This document shows, one piece after another, positions 2,886-56,609 of a DNA stretch of 64,000 nucleotides. Position numbers and translations under genes: made by a program. The stretch comes from an uncultured virus (IMG/VR IMGVR_UViG_2860841867_000002). Taxonomy: Duplodnaviria > Heunggongvirae > Uroviricota > Caudoviricetes. The notes beneath the pieces were generated by a model. It was not told the DNA's origin. It did no database searches and worked only from the letters and a program-made list of their open reading frames with translations. The stretch is taken from positions 1-64,000 of IMG/VR virus record IMGVR_UViG_2860841867_000002. One strand, given 5' to 3'. Every line of letters begins with the position of its first letter. Positions within the stretch are counted from its first letter, which is position 1.

Positions 2886-4400
2886 ATGAATCATAATTTT
2901 ATACTTATTGATTTCTTAGACGAAGTTAGATCCGGAATGGCTCTCGCAACCGAAAGACGTGCTAATATGGTTGCTACAGAGCGGGGAGAAGTCTCGTTTC
3001 TAACTCTTAATTTTCAAAATAACCACGAACACATTATCTCTAGAATGAAAGAAAGAGGGAGACTCGCGGAGAATATCAAGGTATACAATTTTCACGAGCA
3101 CTTCTACAACTTACCTGAGCGCATCTCTAATAAGGATAAATCTCCTGAGCTTGGGTTGGTCGAGGATGGGCTTTCTCACTATATAGATGAACGCCCTAAT
3201 ACAAATGGCTACAGGTACTATGATAAGGACGGGAACTATGTAAAGTACAAACTATTCGACGAAGAAATGAGACTTAAGTTCATTGATTATCGTGACCTTA
3301 ATCTCCAACGTACCCATAGAGTTGAGTATGATCTTAACGGCAGAAAGAGACGTGAGATTAGATACAACCTTCAGAACAACAAACCTGCGTTTGAAAAATA
3401 TTATGATATTAATGAGGAATGTTATTTATCTGTTTGGGTAAATTCTTCAGGGAAGAGAACGAAGTGTGTTATTCACGCTGGAATTAACAAAGCATTTAAT
3501 CATATAACTGATGCGCACGTCTATTGGGTTGAGTCTGTTCTAAAAGATTACACGAATCCGTTTTTAATGCTTGATGAATTGGGATTACTAGATGTTTTCC
3601 GTAAGGTGAGCAACGATTGTTATAAAATCGTAACCTTGCATAATACGCATCTTGATAAGCCACACGTTAAAGGATCTCCATATAGGCGCGTGTATAAAGA
3701 GATATTTGATCACAGGGATGAATTCGATGCGATTGTTTTCTTAACTGAAGAACAAAAAAGGGATGTCGAGGAAGACTACGGTAAGGATAAACGATTTGTT
3801 GTAGTTCCTCATGCGGTCACATTGGACAAAGATGAAATACTAGATGAATCAATTGAGCGAAATCCTAAATCAGCCATAACACTAGCTCGCTTGGAGGACA
3901 GCAAAAATATCGCGGACGGAATTCGAGCTTTCCGTATTGTAGTCGATACTATTAAAGAAGCCGAGTATCACATCTTTGGTTATGGAAAAGAGAAAGAAAA
4001 TTTACAAGCGTTAATAAAGGAGTTAAAACTCGAAAACAATGTTTATATTCACGGGTTCACCCATAACGTTAATAGAGAAATCCAAAAACATGGATTGTCT
4101 ATTATGACGTCCCGTTTTGAAGGCTTTTGTCTAGTGATCATGGAGAGTCTAGCCAACCAAACGCCAGTAGTTAGTTACCGGACGAAGTACGGACCGGAAA
4201 CACTTATCAGAGACGGAAAAGACGGATACCTAACAGAATACAATAACTACGAAGAAGTTGCGGAAAAAGTAATTGAATTAATGTTGGACAGCAAGAAACA
4301 GAAAAAGTTCGCGAAAAATTCATTGGATGTGTACAAGCGGTTTAGTTATGCTCGTTATAAGAAGAATTGGTTAGGCCTGTTTAAACAACTTTCGAAGTAA
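2886..4400 (+). CDS. GT4 glycosyltransferase, TagE/GtfA-like
   Basis: ARLEDSKN, TSRFEGFCLVIMESLA, YGPETLIRDGKDGYL; N-terminal beta-meander-like extension; AT-rich and opposite in orientation to the late operon. Confidence 0.85.
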   Translation: MNHNFILIDFLDEVRSGMALATERRANMVATERGEVSFLTLNFQNNHEHIISRMKERGRLAENIKVYNFHEHFYNLPERISNKDKSPELGLVEDGLSHYIDERPNTNGYRYYDKDGNYVKYKLFDEEMRLKFIDYRDLNLQRTHRVEYDLNGRKRREIRYNLQNNKPAFEKYYDINEECYLSVWVNSSGKRTKCVIHAGINKAFNHITDAHVYWVESVLKDYTNPFLMLDELGLLDVFRKVSNDCYKIVTLHNTHLDKPHVKGSPYRRVYKEIFDHRDEFDAIVFLTEEQKRDVEEDYGKDKRFVVVPHAVTLDKDEILDESIERNPKSAITLARLEDSKNIADGIRAFRIVVDTIKEAEYHIFGYGKEKENLQALIKELKLENNVYIHGFTHNVNREIQKHGLSIMTSRFEGFCLVIMESLANQTPVVSYRTKYGPETLIRDGKDGYLTEYNNYEEVAEKVIELMLDSKKQKKFAKNSLDVYKRFSYARYKKNWLGLFKQLSK

Positions 4401-31927: not shown

Positions 31928-32252
31928 AACGAAACTCTTAACGGCCATCCTCGGCCTATCACTCGCAGGCAACGCGGCTCTCGGAATCTACGCTGCCAAA
32001 CTAAACGAAGATGTCGATATTGCTTATCGTGTGGCTGACGACATGGCAGCCGAAGCTAAGGACGCTCAGGAAACGATCGAGCGCGAATATATTGTCGAAG
32101 GGAAAGACTACGCGGTATCAGCGGACGACGGCGGCTTCTCTTTCGATCCACAAGCCACAGACGCAAAGCCAGGCGATCGGATCATCGTGACTTTTACGAA
32201 GGATCAGTACGAAAATGGCAGCGGATTTAAGGCGATTAAGGTTATCGAATAA
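31914..32252 (+). CDS. Secreted or membrane-anchored hypothetical protein
   Basis: N-terminal signal-like segment, OB-like C-terminus. Confidence 0.7.
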   Translation: MTMNKTKLLTAILGLSLAGNAALGIYAAKLNEDVDIAYRVADDMAAEAKDAQETIEREYIVEGKDYAVSADDGGFSFDPQATDAKPGDRIIVTFTKDQYENGSGFKAIKVIE

Positions 32253-32254
32253 CA

Positions 32255-32335
32255 CACGAAATCAGGCGTTAAGCGGCCGCCGATACCTAATATACCAGCA
32301 ATACTTTCCGGCGGCTCCTACGCTTTAATTTCGTG
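32255..32335. repeat. Palindromic element, copy 2
   Basis: CACGAAAT...TACCTAATATACC...ATTTCGTG. Confidence 0.65.
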
Positions 32336-32489
32336 GGAAAATCGTTCGAAGGGCGAACGGCAAGTAGACCGGAAAAGCCTACGCAAACTGTTTAAATGCC
32401 GGAATAATTTACCGCAACCGAATCGCTTTGTCTCGGCGGACTCTTACTATATCATTATAGTAACTACGCTGAAACGAGGTGATTCTTTT

Positions 32490-33299
32490 TTGTTTATTTC
32501 GCCCATGCTGCTTGAATCCGCAAAGGAGCCGTTTAACTCTGACGACTATATCACGGAAACCAAATTCGATGGCATCCGCCTGATCGCGTCTAGGAATAAC
32601 GGTTTAATCCGCCTCTACACACGCCACAACAACGAAGTCACCACTAAATTTCCGGAACTATTAACGCTCGACATACCGGACGGCACCATATTAGACGGCG
32701 AGCTTATCGTGCCAGGTCCGACGGGCGCCGGCGATTTCGAGGCCGTCATGGAACGGTTCCAGTCGCGAAAAAGTTATCATCCGATAGTATTTTGCGTTTT
32801 TGATGTCCTGCGGATAAAAGGCGTTTCAGTTACGTCTAAGCCGCTAGGTGAACGAAAAGAATTGCTGGCCGGTCTAAAACTCGATCATCCTAACGTTAAA
32901 GTAGTCGAAGGTGTTCACGGCCATGCTGCGGATTATTTCGAATTGGTCTGCAAAAATAAAATCGAGGGCATCGTTATGAAGCGGGTAGACGCGCCGTATA
33001 CGGAAAATAAGCGGTCAGATCGCTGGCTGAAGATCGTAAACTACGAATATACTGACGTTTGGATTACGGGACTCCGTAAGGAAGATAATGCGCTGCTGCT
33101 TTCATACCTGGACGGCCAGTATGCCGGCGTGATGGAGTTTATGCCGTACGATGCGCGACGGAAGTTTCATGCGGGGAGGATAATCGTAGAAGAAACCGAG
33201 AAATACGCCTATATTAAGCCAATTGGGTGCCGCGTCAAGCACCGGTTCAAGACGAAAAATGACTTGCTGCGGATTCCTTCGTTCCATGAATGGCGTTGA
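32490..33299 (+). CDS. ATP-dependent DNA ligase
   Basis: ETKFDGIR, LDGEL, FDVL, EGIVMKR, WLK. Confidence 0.95.
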   Translation: MFISPMLLESAKEPFNSDDYITETKFDGIRLIASRNNGLIRLYTRHNNEVTTKFPELLTLDIPDGTILDGELIVPGPTGAGDFEAVMERFQSRKSYHPIVFCVFDVLRIKGVSVTSKPLGERKELLAGLKLDHPNVKVVEGVHGHAADYFELVCKNKIEGIVMKRVDAPYTENKRSDRWLKIVNYEYTDVWITGLRKEDNALLLSYLDGQYAGVMEFMPYDARRKFHAGRIIVEETEKYAYIKPIGCRVKHRFKTKNDLLRIPSFHEWR

Positions 33300-33346
33300 A
33301 TGTGCCGGTCATTTATCGTATTCTAATATTCGGAGGTTGAGGACGA

Positions 33347-33520
33347 ATGGATTACGAAACAAAAGGCTATGATACGTCAATTGTATACGATTATAAAGAG
33401 TACCCAGACGTCCATTACGGGCGCTGCGATAACTGCGACTATACGCTGTTTAAAAGTTCGGTGAAGGATGGCGTTTTCCTACGTGAGTGTCGACGTTGCG
33501 GTATGAAAAAGAGTATATAA
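33347..33520 (+). CDS. Small zinc-ribbon protein (57 aa)
   Basis: MDYETKGYD...CDNC...CRRCGMKKSI; RBS present; not in track. Confidence 0.8.
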   Translation: MDYETKGYDTSIVYDYKEYPDVHYGRCDNCDYTLFKSSVKDGVFLRECRRCGMKKSI

Positions 33521-33525
33521 ATACG

Positions 33526-33559
33526 AAAAAGGCCCGACTCGATTGAGTGGGCTATTTTT
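33526..33559. terminator. Bidirectional terminator
   Basis: AAAAAGGCCCGACTC-gatt-GAGTGGGCTATTTTT. Confidence 0.7.
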
Positions 33560-33866
33560 CTTCTGCATCTACAGACGAGCTTCCTATCTTATCACTCGCC
33601 GGATCATATAAACCGTCGAACTCTTTAGATTTATCACCGTTCAAATATCCTTCAACGGTGATAGCACCGGTTGGATCAATAAAGTAATCATCATAATAAG
33701 TAATAGTATCAATACCTTTGTACTCATTATGTAGATATTCAGTCATCTTAGTTTTCGCCTTCTCAAAAAGAACAGTTTCTTCTTTTTTCACATCATACTG
33801 ATGCTTCATAAACAACCCTCCACCTGCTATAATTAACAATAGTAGGATAATAATGTATTTTTTCAA
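33552..33866 (-). CDS. Membrane-anchored protein, DUF1433-like; candidate lipase immunity protein
   Basis: N-terminal TM; YL...YKGI..IT, IDPTGAITVEGYLNGD. Confidence 0.7.
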   Translation of the reverse strand: MKKYIIILLLLIIAGGGLFMKHQYDVKKEETVLFEKAKTKMTEYLHNEYKGIDTITYYDDYFIDPTGAITVEGYLNGDKSKEFDGLYDPASDKIGSSSVDAEEK

Positions 33867-33923
33867 ATGAAATTCATTCCTTTCCTATTATTATTTTACA
33901 TTACACGGAAGGTGTTGTATATC

Positions 33924-35363
33924 TTGAGTAAGAAGATTAAGAAGTCCAATCTTACGGATGAGACTTATTATCGTATAAGCCAACGTTCTTACAACTACGA
34001 TTATCTCAGAAAAAAATTAAAAAACAAAGAGTACATACGGATAAATTCATCTGTTTCCGGAGCCACCTACTGGTATGTTGATAAAATTAAAACAGACGAA
34101 GACACCGGGTTAGATGCGGCCGTTCTATCCCAGGCCGAAAATAAAAACGGCAAGTGGGTGAAATCCGACCACCCCAAAAACGTCGTTGTAGCTTTTGCGG
34201 GAACTGATCCGGGGAAGGACCCGTTAAGTGACGTAGAGCAAGCAGACATTAATCATATCGTCTTAGGAAACGATCCGAAAGATAAAACACAATATGTCGT
34301 CAAGAAAGATGCGAAAGATATGTCTAAGACGTTCGGTAGATATATTGGTTCGATGGAACAAACTGCCATGCTTGAGTCCGGTGATTATAAATTAATTACA
34401 AAAACATCGCAAATCGATCAAGCCGATCAACTTGTGCGGGAAGTTAAACAAAAGTATAAAGGCACCTCGACAGTTATTTCAACCACCGGACACTCGCTCG
34501 GCGGCGCAGAGGCTGAATACAGCGCGGTCAACAATGATATCTATGCCGTCGCGTTTAATAGCCCCTCAATCGTTCACCTGCATTCTGATGAAAAACAGAA
34601 AGAAATTAATAACGGAGATTATAACTCTTATGTAAAATCTATCATTAATCCGGATGATATGGTCGGTGCCGGTTGGTGGGACGAATTCGATCGCCACAAT
34701 GGGACTACCATCTACACAAAAGACCCTTCTATTGCAACGGCTAATCGCGAAGAAAGACTTGACGGCAATAAACTCCAACAGGTTGGAAGAAACCTTCTGT
34801 ATTTCGCTAATACACTAATCTTTCAAAATCCGGATACACACGGCCTCAACAAAGGCAACTTTACCTTCGACGAAAACGGCAACGTTCAAAATATAGAGGG
34901 CGATGAACTCGTTTATGACAAAAATTTAAAAGCGATGCTCCCACCGGAAGTTGCCTCCGGAAGTGGCGCAATTAAAGTAACACCCGAAGTTGCCAAGCAG
35001 CTCGCGCAAAAAGTAAATGCGATCATCGATGACTTGCGGACGATGAAACGGGAAGCCGAAAACGCTTATCAGGAACACGACGCCGAGATCAACGACCTGA
35101 AGCACGATACCTACCGTCAGGTCGGCCACGGTTTATACGACAAGCTGACACTCGAGGATGTAAACAATACGCTGAAAAACCTGGCGCAGTCGTTTGACAA
35201 AAAAGGCAATCCGCTATTTTACGATGTTCATGCCGAAAAAGCGTACATCGCCTCATTAAAAAATACGATTTCAGATTTAGAAGACATCAGCGGGTACCTG
35301 GCGCAGATTGCAAAAGATTTTAAATCGAAAGATAAAATGCTGGCAAATTGGCTTAAACTTTAG
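33924..35363 (+). CDS. Lipase-domain protein with C-terminal helical (WXG/LXG-like) region; candidate T7SS toxin
   Basis: VAFAGT, TGHSLGG, FNSP, DMVG, H; then IKVTPE... helices ending DFKSKD; TTG at 33924 has RBS (track start 33867). Confidence 0.8.
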   Translation: MSKKIKKSNLTDETYYRISQRSYNYDYLRKKLKNKEYIRINSSVSGATYWYVDKIKTDEDTGLDAAVLSQAENKNGKWVKSDHPKNVVVAFAGTDPGKDPLSDVEQADINHIVLGNDPKDKTQYVVKKDAKDMSKTFGRYIGSMEQTAMLESGDYKLITKTSQIDQADQLVREVKQKYKGTSTVISTTGHSLGGAEAEYSAVNNDIYAVAFNSPSIVHLHSDEKQKEINNGDYNSYVKSIINPDDMVGAGWWDEFDRHNGTTIYTKDPSIATANREERLDGNKLQQVGRNLLYFANTLIFQNPDTHGLNKGNFTFDENGNVQNIEGDELVYDKNLKAMLPPEVASGSGAIKVTPEVAKQLAQKVNAIIDDLRTMKREAENAYQEHDAEINDLKHDTYRQVGHGLYDKLTLEDVNNTLKNLAQSFDKKGNPLFYDVHAEKAYIASLKNTISDLEDISGYLAQIAKDFKSKDKMLANWLKL

Positions 35364-35374
35364 GAGATGAAACA

Positions 35375-35707
35375 ATGGAAAATTTCAACAAACTGGCTTC
35401 ACTCAACAACTTAAACGGAGATCAAGAAGATACCCTCTTCATACGGCGCAACCAGCTTCAAATGCTGAAAACGGGCATGAGAGTAACGGCCGCAACTAAG
35501 CTTGAAGGCATTAAAACGACACTAAGACCGAAGTTTAAAATAGGCGATATACAAAAAGAAATGAACAGCGTTTATTCATCGCTTCTCTACAGCTTCGAAG
35601 GAAAAGCGCAAGAGGCGCTTGCTCAACGAATCAGCCAAAGCGCCCAGCAGCTTATTAACACGGAGAAAGACGGAGAGAGCTTTGTGAACGGATTTAAGAC
35701 GAGATAG
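35375..35707 (+). CDS. Small helical WXG100-like partner protein
   Basis: 110 aa; helix-SFEGKAQEA-helix; AGGAG RBS just after lipase gene. Confidence 0.6.
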   Translation: MENFNKLASLNNLNGDQEDTLFIRRNQLQMLKTGMRVTAATKLEGIKTTLRPKFKIGDIQKEMNSVYSSLLYSFEGKAQEALAQRISQSAQQLINTEKDGESFVNGFKTR

Positions 35708-35733
35708 AGGCGCCAGTCTAAGGCGCTTTTTTT
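35708..35733 (+). terminator. Intrinsic terminator
   Basis: AGGCGCC-agtctaa-GGCGCTT followed by a T run. Confidence 0.75.
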
Positions 35734-35740
35734 CGTTCAT

Positions 35741-36541
35741 CTACGGCTTATTAACGTTAAACATCGCAAGTAGCGTCTTATCCGGCGCCTTTGACTGACG
35801 ATAAAACACGTTAGGATTAAACGTATATCGTTCCGGCTCGCCACCGACCTTTATTCGCGCGACAACGAATTCGCCGTCGAATTTCATCTGCTTCAGGCGT
35901 CGGCCAAGCGTGTCGGGCGTTACTCCGATAGCGGCCGCCAGCTCTTTCTTATTGAACCAACGAATATGCTTCGGATTCTTTTCGAAAGGATTTTCGCAAA
36001 GGGCATTTGTTTCGTAGTGAACGAACGGCAGCATCCGGTAGATCAGACCGATGTCTGTCGCCTTCACTTCGCTGTATACCTTCTTAATCTTCGCGGTATA
36101 GAGTTTGACGACGTATTGGCTTCCGAAGTTGCCCTTAAAATGATAGCGTTCGTTCACCGAGTATATGCCGCCTTCTTCCCGGATAATATCATGCGCAGTA
36201 CAGGCGCTCAGGAAATCGTAAAACGTTCGCGGCTTTTTCGCGAGCTGTAGAACGGACATCATATCCGCCGTGGTCATCGGCGTTTTGTCGCGGCTGGATT
36301 TAACGAGAACACCGTTATAGTCAACGTAGCATTGCAGCAGCATCAGATAGCCGCATTGTGCCGTTGTGAGAGCGTCATATACTTCGTGAATGTTCGGCAT
36401 ATTGGCGTTAGAAAAGTCGCGCCTGTCCGTCGTCTGCTTTTGCTGTTCCCGGAAGGCTTCGTCTTGGTTCCGGTGTCTGAGCGTGTAGTCTGTCGATAAA
36501 TCTTCGCCTGTTTCTGCGTTTACTACTCGTAATCTTTTCAA
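35741..36541 (-). CDS. Rep-like DNA-binding protein (tandem winged helix)
   Basis: YSVNERY and YTFNPNVF wing motifs; NKKELAAAIGVTPDTL HTH. Confidence 0.6.
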   Translation of the reverse strand: MKRLRVVNAETGEDLSTDYTLRHRNQDEAFREQQKQTTDRRDFSNANMPNIHEVYDALTTAQCGYLMLLQCYVDYNGVLVKSSRDKTPMTTADMMSVLQLAKKPRTFYDFLSACTAHDIIREEGGIYSVNERYHFKGNFGSQYVVKLYTAKIKKVYSEVKATDIGLIYRMLPFVHYETNALCENPFEKNPKHIRWFNKKELAAAIGVTPDTLGRRLKQMKFDGEFVVARIKVGGEPERYTFNPNVFYRQSKAPDKTLLAMFNVNKP

Positions 36542-36588
36542 AATATCGTCTCCTTTTTCGCAAAATAAAAGAGCGCGGATGTGGCGCC

Positions 36589-36620
36589 CTCATAACGTAT
36601 AGACAGCTAAACGGGTAAAA
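36589..36620 (-). promoter_or_regulatory. Putative phage-specific promoter/regulatory motif, copy 2
   Basis: CTCATAACGTATAGACAGCTA-N4-GGTAAAA upstream of the Rep-like gene. Confidence 0.65.
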
Positions 36621-36628
36621 TAGGCTGT

Positions 36629-37117
36629 TTAGTGAATAATTTTTTCTCCTGTTGCGATATCGACCGTAAACTGTCCCGGGGATCTCCCCTTTACGAAATC
36701 GTTATAGCGGCTTCTTCGTTCTTTATTTCGCGCCCTGGCCGCCCTATCAACGAATTTTTCCTCGTATGAAGAGCGTTTTCTTCGCGTTGGAACTTTATAA
36801 TTTCGGCCATCTGCCCCGTACTCTTCGGCAAGTTTTTCGGAAGCTTCAGACTTAATACGCTCCTCTCGCTGTGTCTCGCTCATGATCGGGTACTCTTCGC
36901 GGGTCATTTTATCCGGATGGGGATTCGTTAGCTCTTCGTAGATAATAAGATTTGCCATATGTTCAAGTTCCGTGGAGTCCGGAGATTTACCGACTGAATC
37001 GTGGTATGCTTCCACAAGTGCGTTAATTTCCTTAATACGTTCAATACGATCCAATTCTCCAGCCTTCGTTCGCTTCTGTAATTCGGTAATCATTTCGTGT
37101 AGTAGCGCCTTATCCAT
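36629..37117 (-). CDS. Hypothetical phage protein
   Basis: ATG at 37117 with GGAGG RBS; EEYPIMSE motif. Confidence 0.75.
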   Translation of the reverse strand: MDKALLHEMITELQKRTKAGELDRIERIKEINALVEAYHDSVGKSPDSTELEHMANLIIYEELTNPHPDKMTREEYPIMSETQREERIKSEASEKLAEEYGADGRNYKVPTRRKRSSYEEKFVDRAARARNKERRSRYNDFVKGRSPGQFTVDIATGEKIIH

Positions 37118-37499
37118 TAATTCGTCCTCCCGTCGAGTATCCTTCGCCATGTCCCGCCCAATAGTAGTAAATATCCGCAATTGAATCGGCTGCACGATTT
37201 ATCAGATGATTAATCGAATCCTTGCCAACTCCCATCCGTTTTCCCGCCTCCACTTGCGTCAGATCTTCGAAATATACGAGCCGGATGGCTTCGCGCTGTC
37301 TGTCGGTCAGTTTCGCAAGCTCGATCGCGTTGTGCAGATCGAGCAGCACTTCGGCAGCTTCGTATTCTCCGAGCCGTTTGCGGCTGACGAACTTCGGATA
37401 ATCGGAGAGCAGCGTTTTGACGCCCTCCGCATTGTCTAGCGCATAAGCCGCCTCAAATTCGCGATCCTTTCGGTGTAGATCGATTTTGACTGTTCCGAT
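37110..37499 (-). CDS. Sigma-70 region 4-like regulator (candidate late activator)
   Basis: LTDRQREAIRLVYFEDLTQVEAGKRMGV; start uncertain. Confidence 0.85.
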   Translation of the reverse strand: MGTVKIDLHRKDREFEAAYALDNAEGVKTLLSDYPKFVSRKRLGEYEAAEVLLDLHNAIELAKLTDRQREAIRLVYFEDLTQVEAGKRMGVGKDSINHLINRAADSIADIYYYWAGHGEGYSTGGRING

Positions 37500-37613
37500 A
37501 ACAACCGCCTCCTCTTTCGTTAATAACTTCGTTAACAATTCGCACATCACAGTTGACTATCGGTAACTATTCCGTCTATACTGAACGTAAATACTTCCGT
37601 AAGGAGATTCGTT

Positions 37614-55375: not shown

Positions 55376-55498
55376 TCAACCACCTGGGACTGGGTCTGCT
55401 AACTGTGTTGTATTATCTTCTGTCACATTATTAATTAACGAACTTCCCGCTAGCAGAACCACCGCTGTAAATAAAACTGCCAATAAAATCTTTTTCAA
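55376..55498 (-). CDS. aimP: Arbitrium signalling pro-peptide AimP (40 aa)
   Basis: MKKILLAVLFTAVVLLAGSSLINNVTEDNTTQLADPVPGG; signal peptide plus short C-terminal peptide; GGGAGAGGA RBS; overlaps the aimR 3' end; not in track. Confidence 0.88.
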   Translation of the reverse strand: MKKILLAVLFTAVVLLAGSSLINNVTEDNTTQLADPVPGG

Positions 55499-56609
55499 AG
55501 TATTCCTCTCCCTTGTAATTTAATTGGATGTCCTTTATAGGGGCAGCGACGAGAGGGTCTAATCCGGCATCGATCATATCACCCACAACGATGCTTGAAA
55601 ACAGGAAGTTGAATTCTTGTGTGAATGTACTATACGCGCAGGCCAGATCTGATAAGGTCCCATCCTTGATCAATTGGAAGTACCGCAGAAATAGATTTTT
55701 TTCGCCTAGTATCATGTCTTTCGGTGTTGGTAAATTTTGAGGAATCTCCCCTTTCTCTTTATACGAATAAAATCCCTCGACTAACTTCAATGTGTTTTTT
55801 GCTTCCGCAGCAATCCTCAAATCGTTTGTCTTTTTTGCCTCATCAGCGCTCATCCTTATATAGCGAAGACACTCTTTCTTATCTTCCTCTATAAAAGAAA
55901 CACCCATGTAATAATACCCGTCAGATTTCGTTTTCGCACTTAAATTCGAAGAAAAAAGAAATTCTGCATGACGTCGCGCTTTTGAAAGATCTTTAAGATA
56001 TAAATAAGCAGGCGCAAATACTTCGGAGAGTCTGATAAGATAACACTCTTTAAAAAACGTTTTCCTTGCGTCACTTAATTCGTATATCTCTTTTTCGATA
56101 TCGGAAGCTTTTTCAACGATTGTTGCATATTTATTTTCAAAATAAAGACAGTAGCAAGAAAAGATATCTTTCAAAACCTTTAATTCTTTATCCTTTCCGC
56201 ATTTTAAAGTGTTCACATAATTCCTCAACTCTTGTGGTCTGAATTCCCCTAACATGTAGTTATATATTACCTGATAAAATTGTGTATAATTGATTAGGTT
56301 GGAATCCATTCTATGCGCTTTCAGCAATTTTTCTAACAAAGGAATATCACGCTTTATTGCCGCATACTCAAAAGCATGTTTAATAGCCTCAGTTGTAGTT
56401 AGTTTCAAACACCATTCTTGCATTAATTCATGATACTTCGCTTTATAGAAAAATTGTGACAATTTTAATAATGTTCGAAATCCGATTTTCCCAGTTCTTT
56501 TGAAATTGTAAAGCTGATTCACATGAATATTTAATTTACTTGCAGCTGAATCAAAATCCAAAAACAAATCGTCGAAACAGTTTAAAACATCTTGCTGAAG
56601 TGCGCCCAA
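55431..56609 (-). CDS. aimR: AimR-family arbitrium receptor (HTH + TPR)
   Basis: 392 aa; LYNF, ELMQEWCLKL, AFEYA, CYLIR, YYYMGVSF pattern parallels SPbeta-type AimR as recalled; followed by a secreted peptide gene. Confidence 0.88.
   Translation of the reverse strand: MGALQQDVLNCFDDLFLDFDSAASKLNIHVNQLYNFKRTGKIGFRTLLKLSQFFYKAKYHELMQEWCLKLTTTEAIKHAFEYAAIKRDIPLLEKLLKAHRMDSNLINYTQFYQVIYNYMLGEFRPQELRNYVNTLKCGKDKELKVLKDIFSCYCLYFENKYATIVEKASDIEKEIYELSDARKTFFKECYLIRLSEVFAPAYLYLKDLSKARRHAEFLFSSNLSAKTKSDGYYYMGVSFIEEDKKECLRYIRMSADEAKKTNDLRIAAEAKNTLKLVEGFYSYKEKGEIPQNLPTPKDMILGEKNLFLRYFQLIKDGTLSDLACAYSTFTQEFNFLFSSIVVGDMIDAGLDPLVAAPIKDIQLNYKGEEYFEKDFIGSFIYSGGSASGKFVN

Follow-up and report, generated by a model that had tools for sequence, protein, structure and literature searches.

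Why should a temperate phage carry a lipase gene whose product ends in a long helical tail? The question is raised by a three-gene cassette in a 64,000 nucleotide (nt) stretch of DNA (the window), positions 1 to 64,000 of the uncultured virus record IMGVR_UViG_2860841867_000002. The original prediction, made from the letters of the window, described it as a prophage-supplied antibacterial effector of reverse architecture for the host type VII secretion system of subtype b (T7SSb), accompanied by a single partner and a divergently encoded immunity gene, and homology, gene order, predicted fold and co-occurrence with EssC support that description. Judged by its sequence, the cassette is a member of the Tsl2 family (TslM/TlaM/TilM type), with divergent DUF1433 immunity and one partner. 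It is very probably a lysogenic-conversion cassette, in which the host T7SSb would export the lipase toxin against neighbouring cells and the DUF1433 protein would give protection. The evidence comprises genes, homology, fold, gene order, polymorphism, the insertion site and EssC in host-group genomes, and the features are listed in Table 1.

Table 1. Features of the Tsl2-type cassette and its borders (window coordinates)
Feature	Coordinates	Strand	Basis or remark
Bulged hairpin flanked by A/T runs	33525..33560	.	likely two-way terminator; overlaps immunity stop codon
Til2/DUF1433 immunity protein of 104 aa, membrane-anchored at its N-terminus	33552..33866	-	PF07252 match
Candidate toxin promoter TTCATA-17-TATAAT, extended -10 TGcTATAAT, inside immunity gene	33805..33833	+	scan match 10/12
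Candidate immunity promoter TATACA-17-TAAAAT, in 57-nt gap	33893..33921	-	scan match 9/12
Tsl2-family reverse toxin, 479 aa	33924..35363	+	lipase domain ~9-320, helical tail 350-479
Catalytic triad codons S191 (34494), D245 (34656), H306 (34839)	34494..34841	+	conservation
WXG100/LXG-like trafficking tail	34971..35360	+	AlphaFold2, structural matches, profile matches
Putative export-arm motif F466-x3-D470-x2-L473-x3-L477 on toxin	35319..35354	+	conservation, TslM FEEKD
Single helical partner (Tla2-like), 110 aa, F74-E75-G76 turn	35375..35707	+	TlaM profile match
Phage's pre-existing terminator, right insertion boundary	35706..35730	+	folding z -3.35 (+)

The cassette comes from a provirus of 67,745 bases that is rated 100% complete and encodes an integrase, a lysis amidase, a terminase and AimR. 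Its host presumably belongs to the Bacillus licheniformis/B. haynesii group, since the nearest toxin homologues bear the names of these species and their relatives. The toxin most likely begins at TTG 33924, because GGAAGG lies just ahead of this codon, homologues match from residue 1 (mostly 473–482 aa; best 120 of 209 considered) and the mechanically called ATG at 33867, which was rejected, overlaps the ribosome site of the immunity gene. The gap to the TTG start of the immunity gene is therefore exactly 57 nt (33867–33923).

The N-terminal lipase of the original prediction was confirmed, with the motifs VAFAGT (residue 89), GHSLG (189), NPDD (242) and DTHG (304) and a Pfam Lipase_3 match of 23.1 bits (cut-off 22). 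The Ser-Asp-His triad is kept in all 36 rows of one alignment (A1), and in the main toxin profile (A2; 70 sequences, window protein first) S191 is kept in 69, D245 in 68 and H306 in 67 rows. An AlphaFold2 model (mean predicted local distance difference test, pLDDT, 88.9) shows an alpha/beta hydrolase followed by helices at 354–399, 410–420 and 435–478. The head resembles class 3 lipases in structure, among them Lip2 3o0d (Z 13.7, 207 aligned, root-mean-square deviation (rmsd) 3.8), the structural template cited for both TslA and TslM (PMC10730906, PMC13560087), and by sequence the sole match among solved structures was a plant phospholipase A1 (E 0.06).

The helical C-terminus, which had been predicted to open with IKVTPE, does so at residue 350. 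The DFKSKD motif is likewise present, at residue 465, but it does not end the protein, as F466-D470 stops nine residues short of the C-terminus. Structurally the tail comes closest to EsxO/P, a WXG100 protein (Z 10.2, rmsd 1.9, 89 aligned), and EsxA matches at Z 9.3–9.4, mixed with unrelated coiled coils. The WXG100 model TIGR03930 matches the tail at E 3.4e-4, under its cut-off, and, among 5 targets, the family profile matches host YukE with E 7e-10. The fold lists showed no prominent LXG or PE-PPE toxin complex, which excludes nothing; the toxin is not a canonical LXG toxin, having no PF04740 match and a reversed domain order. As a separate observation, the NCBIfam model SA1320 (NF047388) gives a partial match to toxin residues 154–393 (window 34383–35102, + strand; E 1.5e-10), at 40.2 bits, under the curated cut-off of 230 bits. 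That model also matches YukE weakly, and SA1320 may represent another family of reverse-type T7SS lipases.

Tsl2 toxins were described by Higginson et al. 2026 (PMC13560087) as having an N-terminal lipase, an LXG-like domain at the C-terminus and a single WXG100-like partner bound 1:1, with allele-specific protection by a divergent DUF1433 membrane protein. The accessible text of that paper mentions Bacillus and Listeria homologues, and copies on Staphylococcus aureus pathogenicity islands (SaPIs) and their S. epidermidis counterparts (SePIs). A public S. aureus record was found to carry a Tsl2 locus adjoining hysA and hsdS/hsdM, and its 537-aa lipase was treated as a TslM allele because its triad lies at +1 relative to the published positions 171/226/261 and because of the primer motifs of PMC13560087. 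The 70-sequence profile matches this allele end-to-end (probability 99.92, E 4e-35, 391 columns), bringing S191/D245/H306 into line with S172/D227/H262, and IKVTPE, PLFYD and DFKSKD into line with VKIQPD, FKFYN and KFEEKD. Against the TslM tail alone the profile gives E 6e-18 (among 5 targets); at the turn of the tail, G403 aligns with the Gly of TslM LSG, and Gly401 occupies the Leu position. The gene order is identical in S. aureus, Listeria monocytogenes and B. cereus records.

The membrane-anchored DUF1433-like gene that had been proposed 57 nt away on the opposite strand is borne out by Pfam (PF07252, 31.2 bits, cut-off 30.8), and its profile matches a TilM-like DUF1433 protein of S. aureus (probability 96.1). 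All 29 loci that retain the 5′ end of the toxin have a divergent immunity homologue, and the predicted topology places the immunity domain on the outside of the membrane. The predicted 110-aa helical protein downstream also held up: its model is a helix-turn-helix with FEG (74–76) at the turn, of low confidence (pLDDT 60.6). It is the only partner gene, and is followed by a terminator. No Pfam family reaches its cut-off for this protein, but its Atlas neighbours at 0.94 include clusters with WXG100 (27% of members) and with LXG (13%), and it alone among the cassette proteins matched PHROGs (phrog_38349, unknown function).

The cassette thus shares with TslM-TlaM-TilM a class 3 lipase with Ser-Asp-His, an LXG/WXG100-like tail, a partner of about 100 aa with FEGKA and a divergent DUF1433 gene. 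It differs in having no 116-residue unstructured linker (said likewise of non-staphylococcal members in PMC13560087), in being phage-borne at a fixed site with one immunity gene and no immunity raft, and in its V-G-H-G turn, and a natural partner-less form exists among its relatives. The original prediction had taken TslA as its model, an assignment that did not survive, as the single partner, divergent DUF1433 gene and full-length TslM profile match are those of Tsl2. Tsl1, the TslA-TlaA1-TlaA2-TilA system of S. aureus (Garrett et al. 2023, PMC10730906), has two partners and a G-x-L motif, and TilA is a DUF576 lipoprotein encoded 5′ of the toxin in the same transcription unit. The window cassette resembles it in reverse domain order, lipase toxin and presumed T7SSb export, but no second partner, same-strand DUF576 lipoprotein or G-x-L motif was found at the cassette. 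The tail start GAIKVTPE resembles GIIRVTPA of YukE, the tail ends in an HxxxD/ExxhxxxH arm as in WXG100-like proteins (EsxA/YukE, ESAT-6/CFP-10), and FEG of the partner aligns by eye with WEG of YukE. Unlike WXG100 proteins, the tail has an insert of about 35 residues at the turn and no WxG, and both toxin and partner score under the WXG100 cut-off. Among more distant homologues, L062, L065 and L066 (~1480–2820) have a true WxG partner and a same-strand upstream gene, and in L050, L052 and L054–L057 the divergent neighbour looks like a lipoprotein and not like a protein with a simple membrane anchor; these may be further subfamilies.

As the original prediction stated for the window, secretion machinery is missing: no EssC match occurs anywhere in the complete provirus. 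EssC scored above cut-off in all five host-group genomes, one of which (G001) has a complete locus (yukE, yukD, essB, essC, esaA and essA in a row). When 301 Bacilli genomes were scanned with the toxin profile, 68 matched at E 1e-8 and 233 did not. EssC was then compared between the 25 genomes matching at E <1e-45 (all except G001) and 45 of the 233 non-matching genomes, of which 20 were listed as zero and 25 inferred from absence in the match list. It was above cut-off in 23 of the 25 against 1 of the 45 (plus one partial match below cut-off), a difference taken as support and not as a statistic, because kin share both traits and some EssC genes may belong to other T7SS subtypes (PMC11217815).

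A candidate export signal lies in the toxin itself. D470 is invariant (70/70 rows), one of only two such columns in the alignment, and F/YxxxD/E is present at the C-terminal arm in 58 of 70 rows, with FEEKD at the equivalent position of TslM. F466-D470-L473-L477 fits the HxxxD/ExxhxxxH consensus (PMC10765036). The motif counts solely through its conservation, because F/YxxxD/E also occurs within the last 20 residues of 11 of the 65 open reading frames of the window. Only 2 of 21 partners have it in their last 25 residues. The FxxxD arm of LXG toxins sits on the Lap partner and pairs with the LxG turn of the toxin (PMC10765036); the accessible text on TslM refers to FxxxD a single time, in connection with Laps, and puts forward an LFG turn instead (PMC13560087), and that on TslA reports no FxxxD on the TslA partners (PMC10730906). 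The proposal of FxxxD as a T7SSb export motif on the toxin is therefore upheld by the conserved D470, but it departs from the published rule, which places the motif on the Lap partner. The arrangement looks reversed relative to LXG toxins, with the export arm on the toxin and not on the partner, and the toxin tail and partner would form a WXG100-like heterodimer.

The cassette occupies a defined phage slot. A toxin search of viral contigs found 20 loci, of which 19 share one site, flanked by genes for 57-aa and 266-aa proteins, and a search with the 266-aa flank gene found 55 loci. At ≥93% flank identity there were 28 loci, five of them too short; of the 23 informative ones, 15 have the cassette (nine with a partner, one with a broken partner and five without), six are empty and two have other cargo. 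The cassette was absent from all 14 flank loci at 85–90% identity and from all 13 below 80%. The viral flank records are redundant, so these are not counts of independent phages. In empty-site phages (L080, L090–L092, L122) the stop of the 57-aa gene is directly followed by the right-hand hairpin, which places the insert at about 33521/33529–35707, between a stop codon and the terminator of the phage. The left-hand hairpin folds better than shuffles on both strands (z -4.43, + strand; -3.63, - strand), although missed by a terminator scan; it is absent from the cassette-free phages, whose match to the window stops at 33521–33528, and likely arrived with the cassette. Thus, both hairpins that had been proposed to bound the cassette are real, but the right one is the phage's own. 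The other cargo at the site consists of a Rap-family phosphatase gene (L085:5450–6586) and a 178-aa secreted-looking protein without a Pfam family (L089:5538–6074). By its distribution, the cassette is a swappable cargo at one fixed site of temperate phages of the B. licheniformis group. Two B. subtilis phages, 268TH007 and phi18-2, share the flanks with the window but have no cassette, and among 50,697 GenBank phage records a distant toxin homologue was present only in two Listeria phages. Toxin copies also occur in satellite-like elements and at non-phage sites, two of them adjoining queF, the gene that neighbours the window provirus. The queF-side cassettes (L033:5626–7759 and L034:5626–7759; B. 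tequilensis and B. stercoris), one of them next to an integrase fragment, are probably remnants of a similar phage at the same attachment region.

Relative to the window, identity is 71–99% for full-length phage toxins, 52–100% for immunity proteins and mostly >85% for flanking phage genes. Across 23 loci, immunity identity correlates with that of toxin residues 5–60 (rho 0.74), 61–130 (0.63) and 131–260 (0.42), but hardly with residues 261–325 (0.04) or the tail (0.12); p-values are overstated, because the 23 loci fall into about nine immunity groups. Individual loci show the same break: L033 and L034 have an immunity protein 84% identical to that of the window and a tail at 60%, while L025, L029 and L031 have tails at 94–98% and partners at 95–96% with immunity at 47–56%. 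These patterns indicate that lipase head and immunity gene reassort against tail and partner. The head-to-head layout means that lipase head and immunity can travel as one block.

Several observations weigh against the proposed assignment and function. Pairwise identity to TslM is only 27% over 189 residues, and the L-x-G turn proposed for TslM is replaced here by V400-G-H-G403. The partner matches the TlaM profile weakly (probability 60, E 8.5e-5), with the FEGKA turn aligned, and reaches no WXG100 cut-off; TlaM itself is also under the TIGR03930 cut-off (29.8 against 44.85 bits). Tail Z scores below 13 may be generic for helical hairpins, the EssC count is uncorrected for kinship, and a head-immunity correlation that declines with distance is also expected from physical linkage. 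Finally, the three-gene unit is not obligatory, as the partner is missing from 6 of the 18 viral loci whose downstream sequence is available.

In the partner-less loci a common junction and then a terminator come after the toxin stop, and this arrangement occurs with three or more distinct toxin heads. Such copies may be decaying or complemented in trans, because TslM needs TlaM. One alternative for the cassette as a whole is that it is kept mainly for immunity against the Tsl2 toxins of neighbours, many toxin copies being decaying passengers. Including a broken copy, the partner is lost in 7 of the 18 viral loci, the toxin is frameshifted in L017, and the partner is interrupted in genome locus L028. 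An orphan DUF1433-like gene (L132:2136–2657) lies with no toxin alongside in a prophage remnant with holin-like and Rap-like pieces, and til2 genes without a toxin are frequent in S. aureus (PMC13560087). We nevertheless regard this alternative as unlikely. The triad and F466/D470 are intact in all 23 full-length alleles, five of them partner-less (one of the six partner-less toxins is frameshifted), the window copy is complete, and the partner-less tails show 77 synonymous against 18 non-synonymous codon differences (10 non-independent pairs). That ratio leans toward complementation in trans, though recombination with partnered copies gives the same pattern. In G001 and G002, the only checkable whole genomes with partner-less copies, partner-bearing cassettes are also present (six toxin matches, five immunity genes and two partners in G001; four, four and two in G002).

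The location within a complete phage, and the host-modifying cargo that the slot holds elsewhere (e.g., the Rap-family gene of L085), suit another alternative, in which the lipase acts on the producer or in the phage cycle, whether as anti-phage suicide, superinfection defence or a lysis aid. Lipase domains are effectors in some defence systems. This is more improbable still, as none of the three cassette proteins matched a PADLOC family, the outward-facing topology predicted for the immunity protein suits an external target, homologues also occur at non-phage chromosomal sites and track EssC, and TslA and TslM are toxic only once exported (PMC10730906, PMC13560087). Least credible of all is a T7SS-exported lipase for nutrient scavenging or eukaryotic membranes, to which the closest solved folds (fungal triacylglycerol lipases, feruloyl esterases and plant phospholipase A1) and the public naming of homologues as merely 'lipase' could point, but which a fixed, co-varying, polymorphic, membrane-anchored TilM homologue alongside, a hallmark of toxin-immunity pairs, argues against.

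The preferred reading, an exported antibacterial Tsl2 toxin, would operate as follows. In a lysogen, the helical tail of the 479-aa toxin would bind the 110-aa partner to form a four-helix bundle like a WXG100 dimer, and the export arm of the toxin (F466/D470/L473/L477), together with the F-x-G turn of the partner, would be the signal read by EssC (YukB). The complex would then be exported by the host T7SSb and, outside, the Ser191-Asp245-His306 lipase would cleave phospholipids in the membranes of nearby Gram-positive cells. Anchored so that its domain lies outside, the DUF1433 protein would block the matching lipase both on the producer and on kin of the same allele. Export, partner binding, toxicity and rescue in Bacillus are proposed by analogy with S. 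aureus, where TslM shows EssC- and partner-dependent export, triad-dependent toxicity and allele-specific rescue (PMC13560087); the placement of the signal and expression in the lysogen are likewise presumed.

The divergent layout may be explained by conserved, face-to-face promoter boxes. In 15 of 15 alleles the toxin-strand TATAAT falls on the same Ile-Ile codons (ATT-ATA) of the membrane helix of the immunity protein, with TGn in 14, while the other isoleucine codons are mixed (48 ATT, 37 ATA, 18 ATC). The immunity -10/-35-like pair is also kept in the gap of all 15, with TGTAA(A/C)AT in the same place. TGnTATAAT recurs at the S. aureus locus and at that of B. cereus, and 2 of 12 loci that are more distant have it too. 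These boxes are consensus matches in related, AT-rich sequence. The predicted transcripts would overlap by about 45 nt across the immunity start. Of 24 listed runs recorded as RNA, 14 contain the stretch and four were examined; the one raw-read run gave 0 reads, three contig sets cover flanks and cassette with paralogous tails summed, and all four are uninformative on expression. Rfam showed no family across window 32000–37500.

As phages swap head and immunity blocks at one site, each prophage would amount to one weapon and one protection specificity. A wider proposal joins these strands: a modular exchange of arms on the host T7SS, in which head, promoters and immunity form the swappable unit, the export arm is toxin-borne, and partner-less copies are active cheats that borrow a partner from another prophage or chromosomal cassette, or use host YukE. 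Taken as a whole it is tentative, and somewhat more likely to be wrong than right; if true, the usable weapons of a lysogen would depend on its other prophages.

The Tsl2 family, its mechanism, its Bacillus homologues and prophage-encoded T7SSb LXG toxins are already in print. The last include YokI (SPbeta), YqcG (skin) and YobL, prophage-borne T7SSb toxins of B. subtilis (Kobayashi 2021, PMC8321402), which offer an analogy in that phage elements provide toxin-immunity pairs used in within-species competition, but they have an N-terminal LXG, a nuclease and a downstream antitoxin, and are neither lipases nor reversed. The phage slot, modular exchange, partner-less alleles and toxin-borne export arm are additions. 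The literature searched, to which subscription papers did not belong, held no paper on Tsl2 cassettes in Bacillus phages, though the figures of PMC13560087 could bear on the phage context and on the export motif, and type VII secretion is unmentioned in the accessible part of a B. licheniformis prophage paper (PMC4374763). A toxin family of S. aureus islands is now found in complete, allele-swapping phages of tractable, industrially used bacilli, in which competition between lysogens and non-lysogens is directly testable. The results bear on two open points. One is the site of the export signal in reverse substrates, since the invariant Asp of the export-arm pattern sits on the toxin's own last helix, TslM included. 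The other is the coordination of the 'curious' divergent toxin and immunity genes, which the accessible text on TslM leaves open (PMC13560087).

Other genes were noted in the window. An AimR-like gene (55431–56609, - strand; PF22871, 82.7 bits) is followed by a gene for a 40-aa secreted pre-peptide ending in DPVPGG (55376–55498, - strand), and the two constitute an arbitrium lysis-lysogeny system. A 504-aa family 4 glycosyltransferase (2886–4400, + strand) adjoins the lysis genes and is likely a second lysogenic-conversion gene, perhaps changing the cell surface. Just 5′ of the cassette is an ATP-dependent DNA ligase gene (32490–33299, + strand), which is patchy among related phages, and the cassette and ligase region together make up a variable accessory block.

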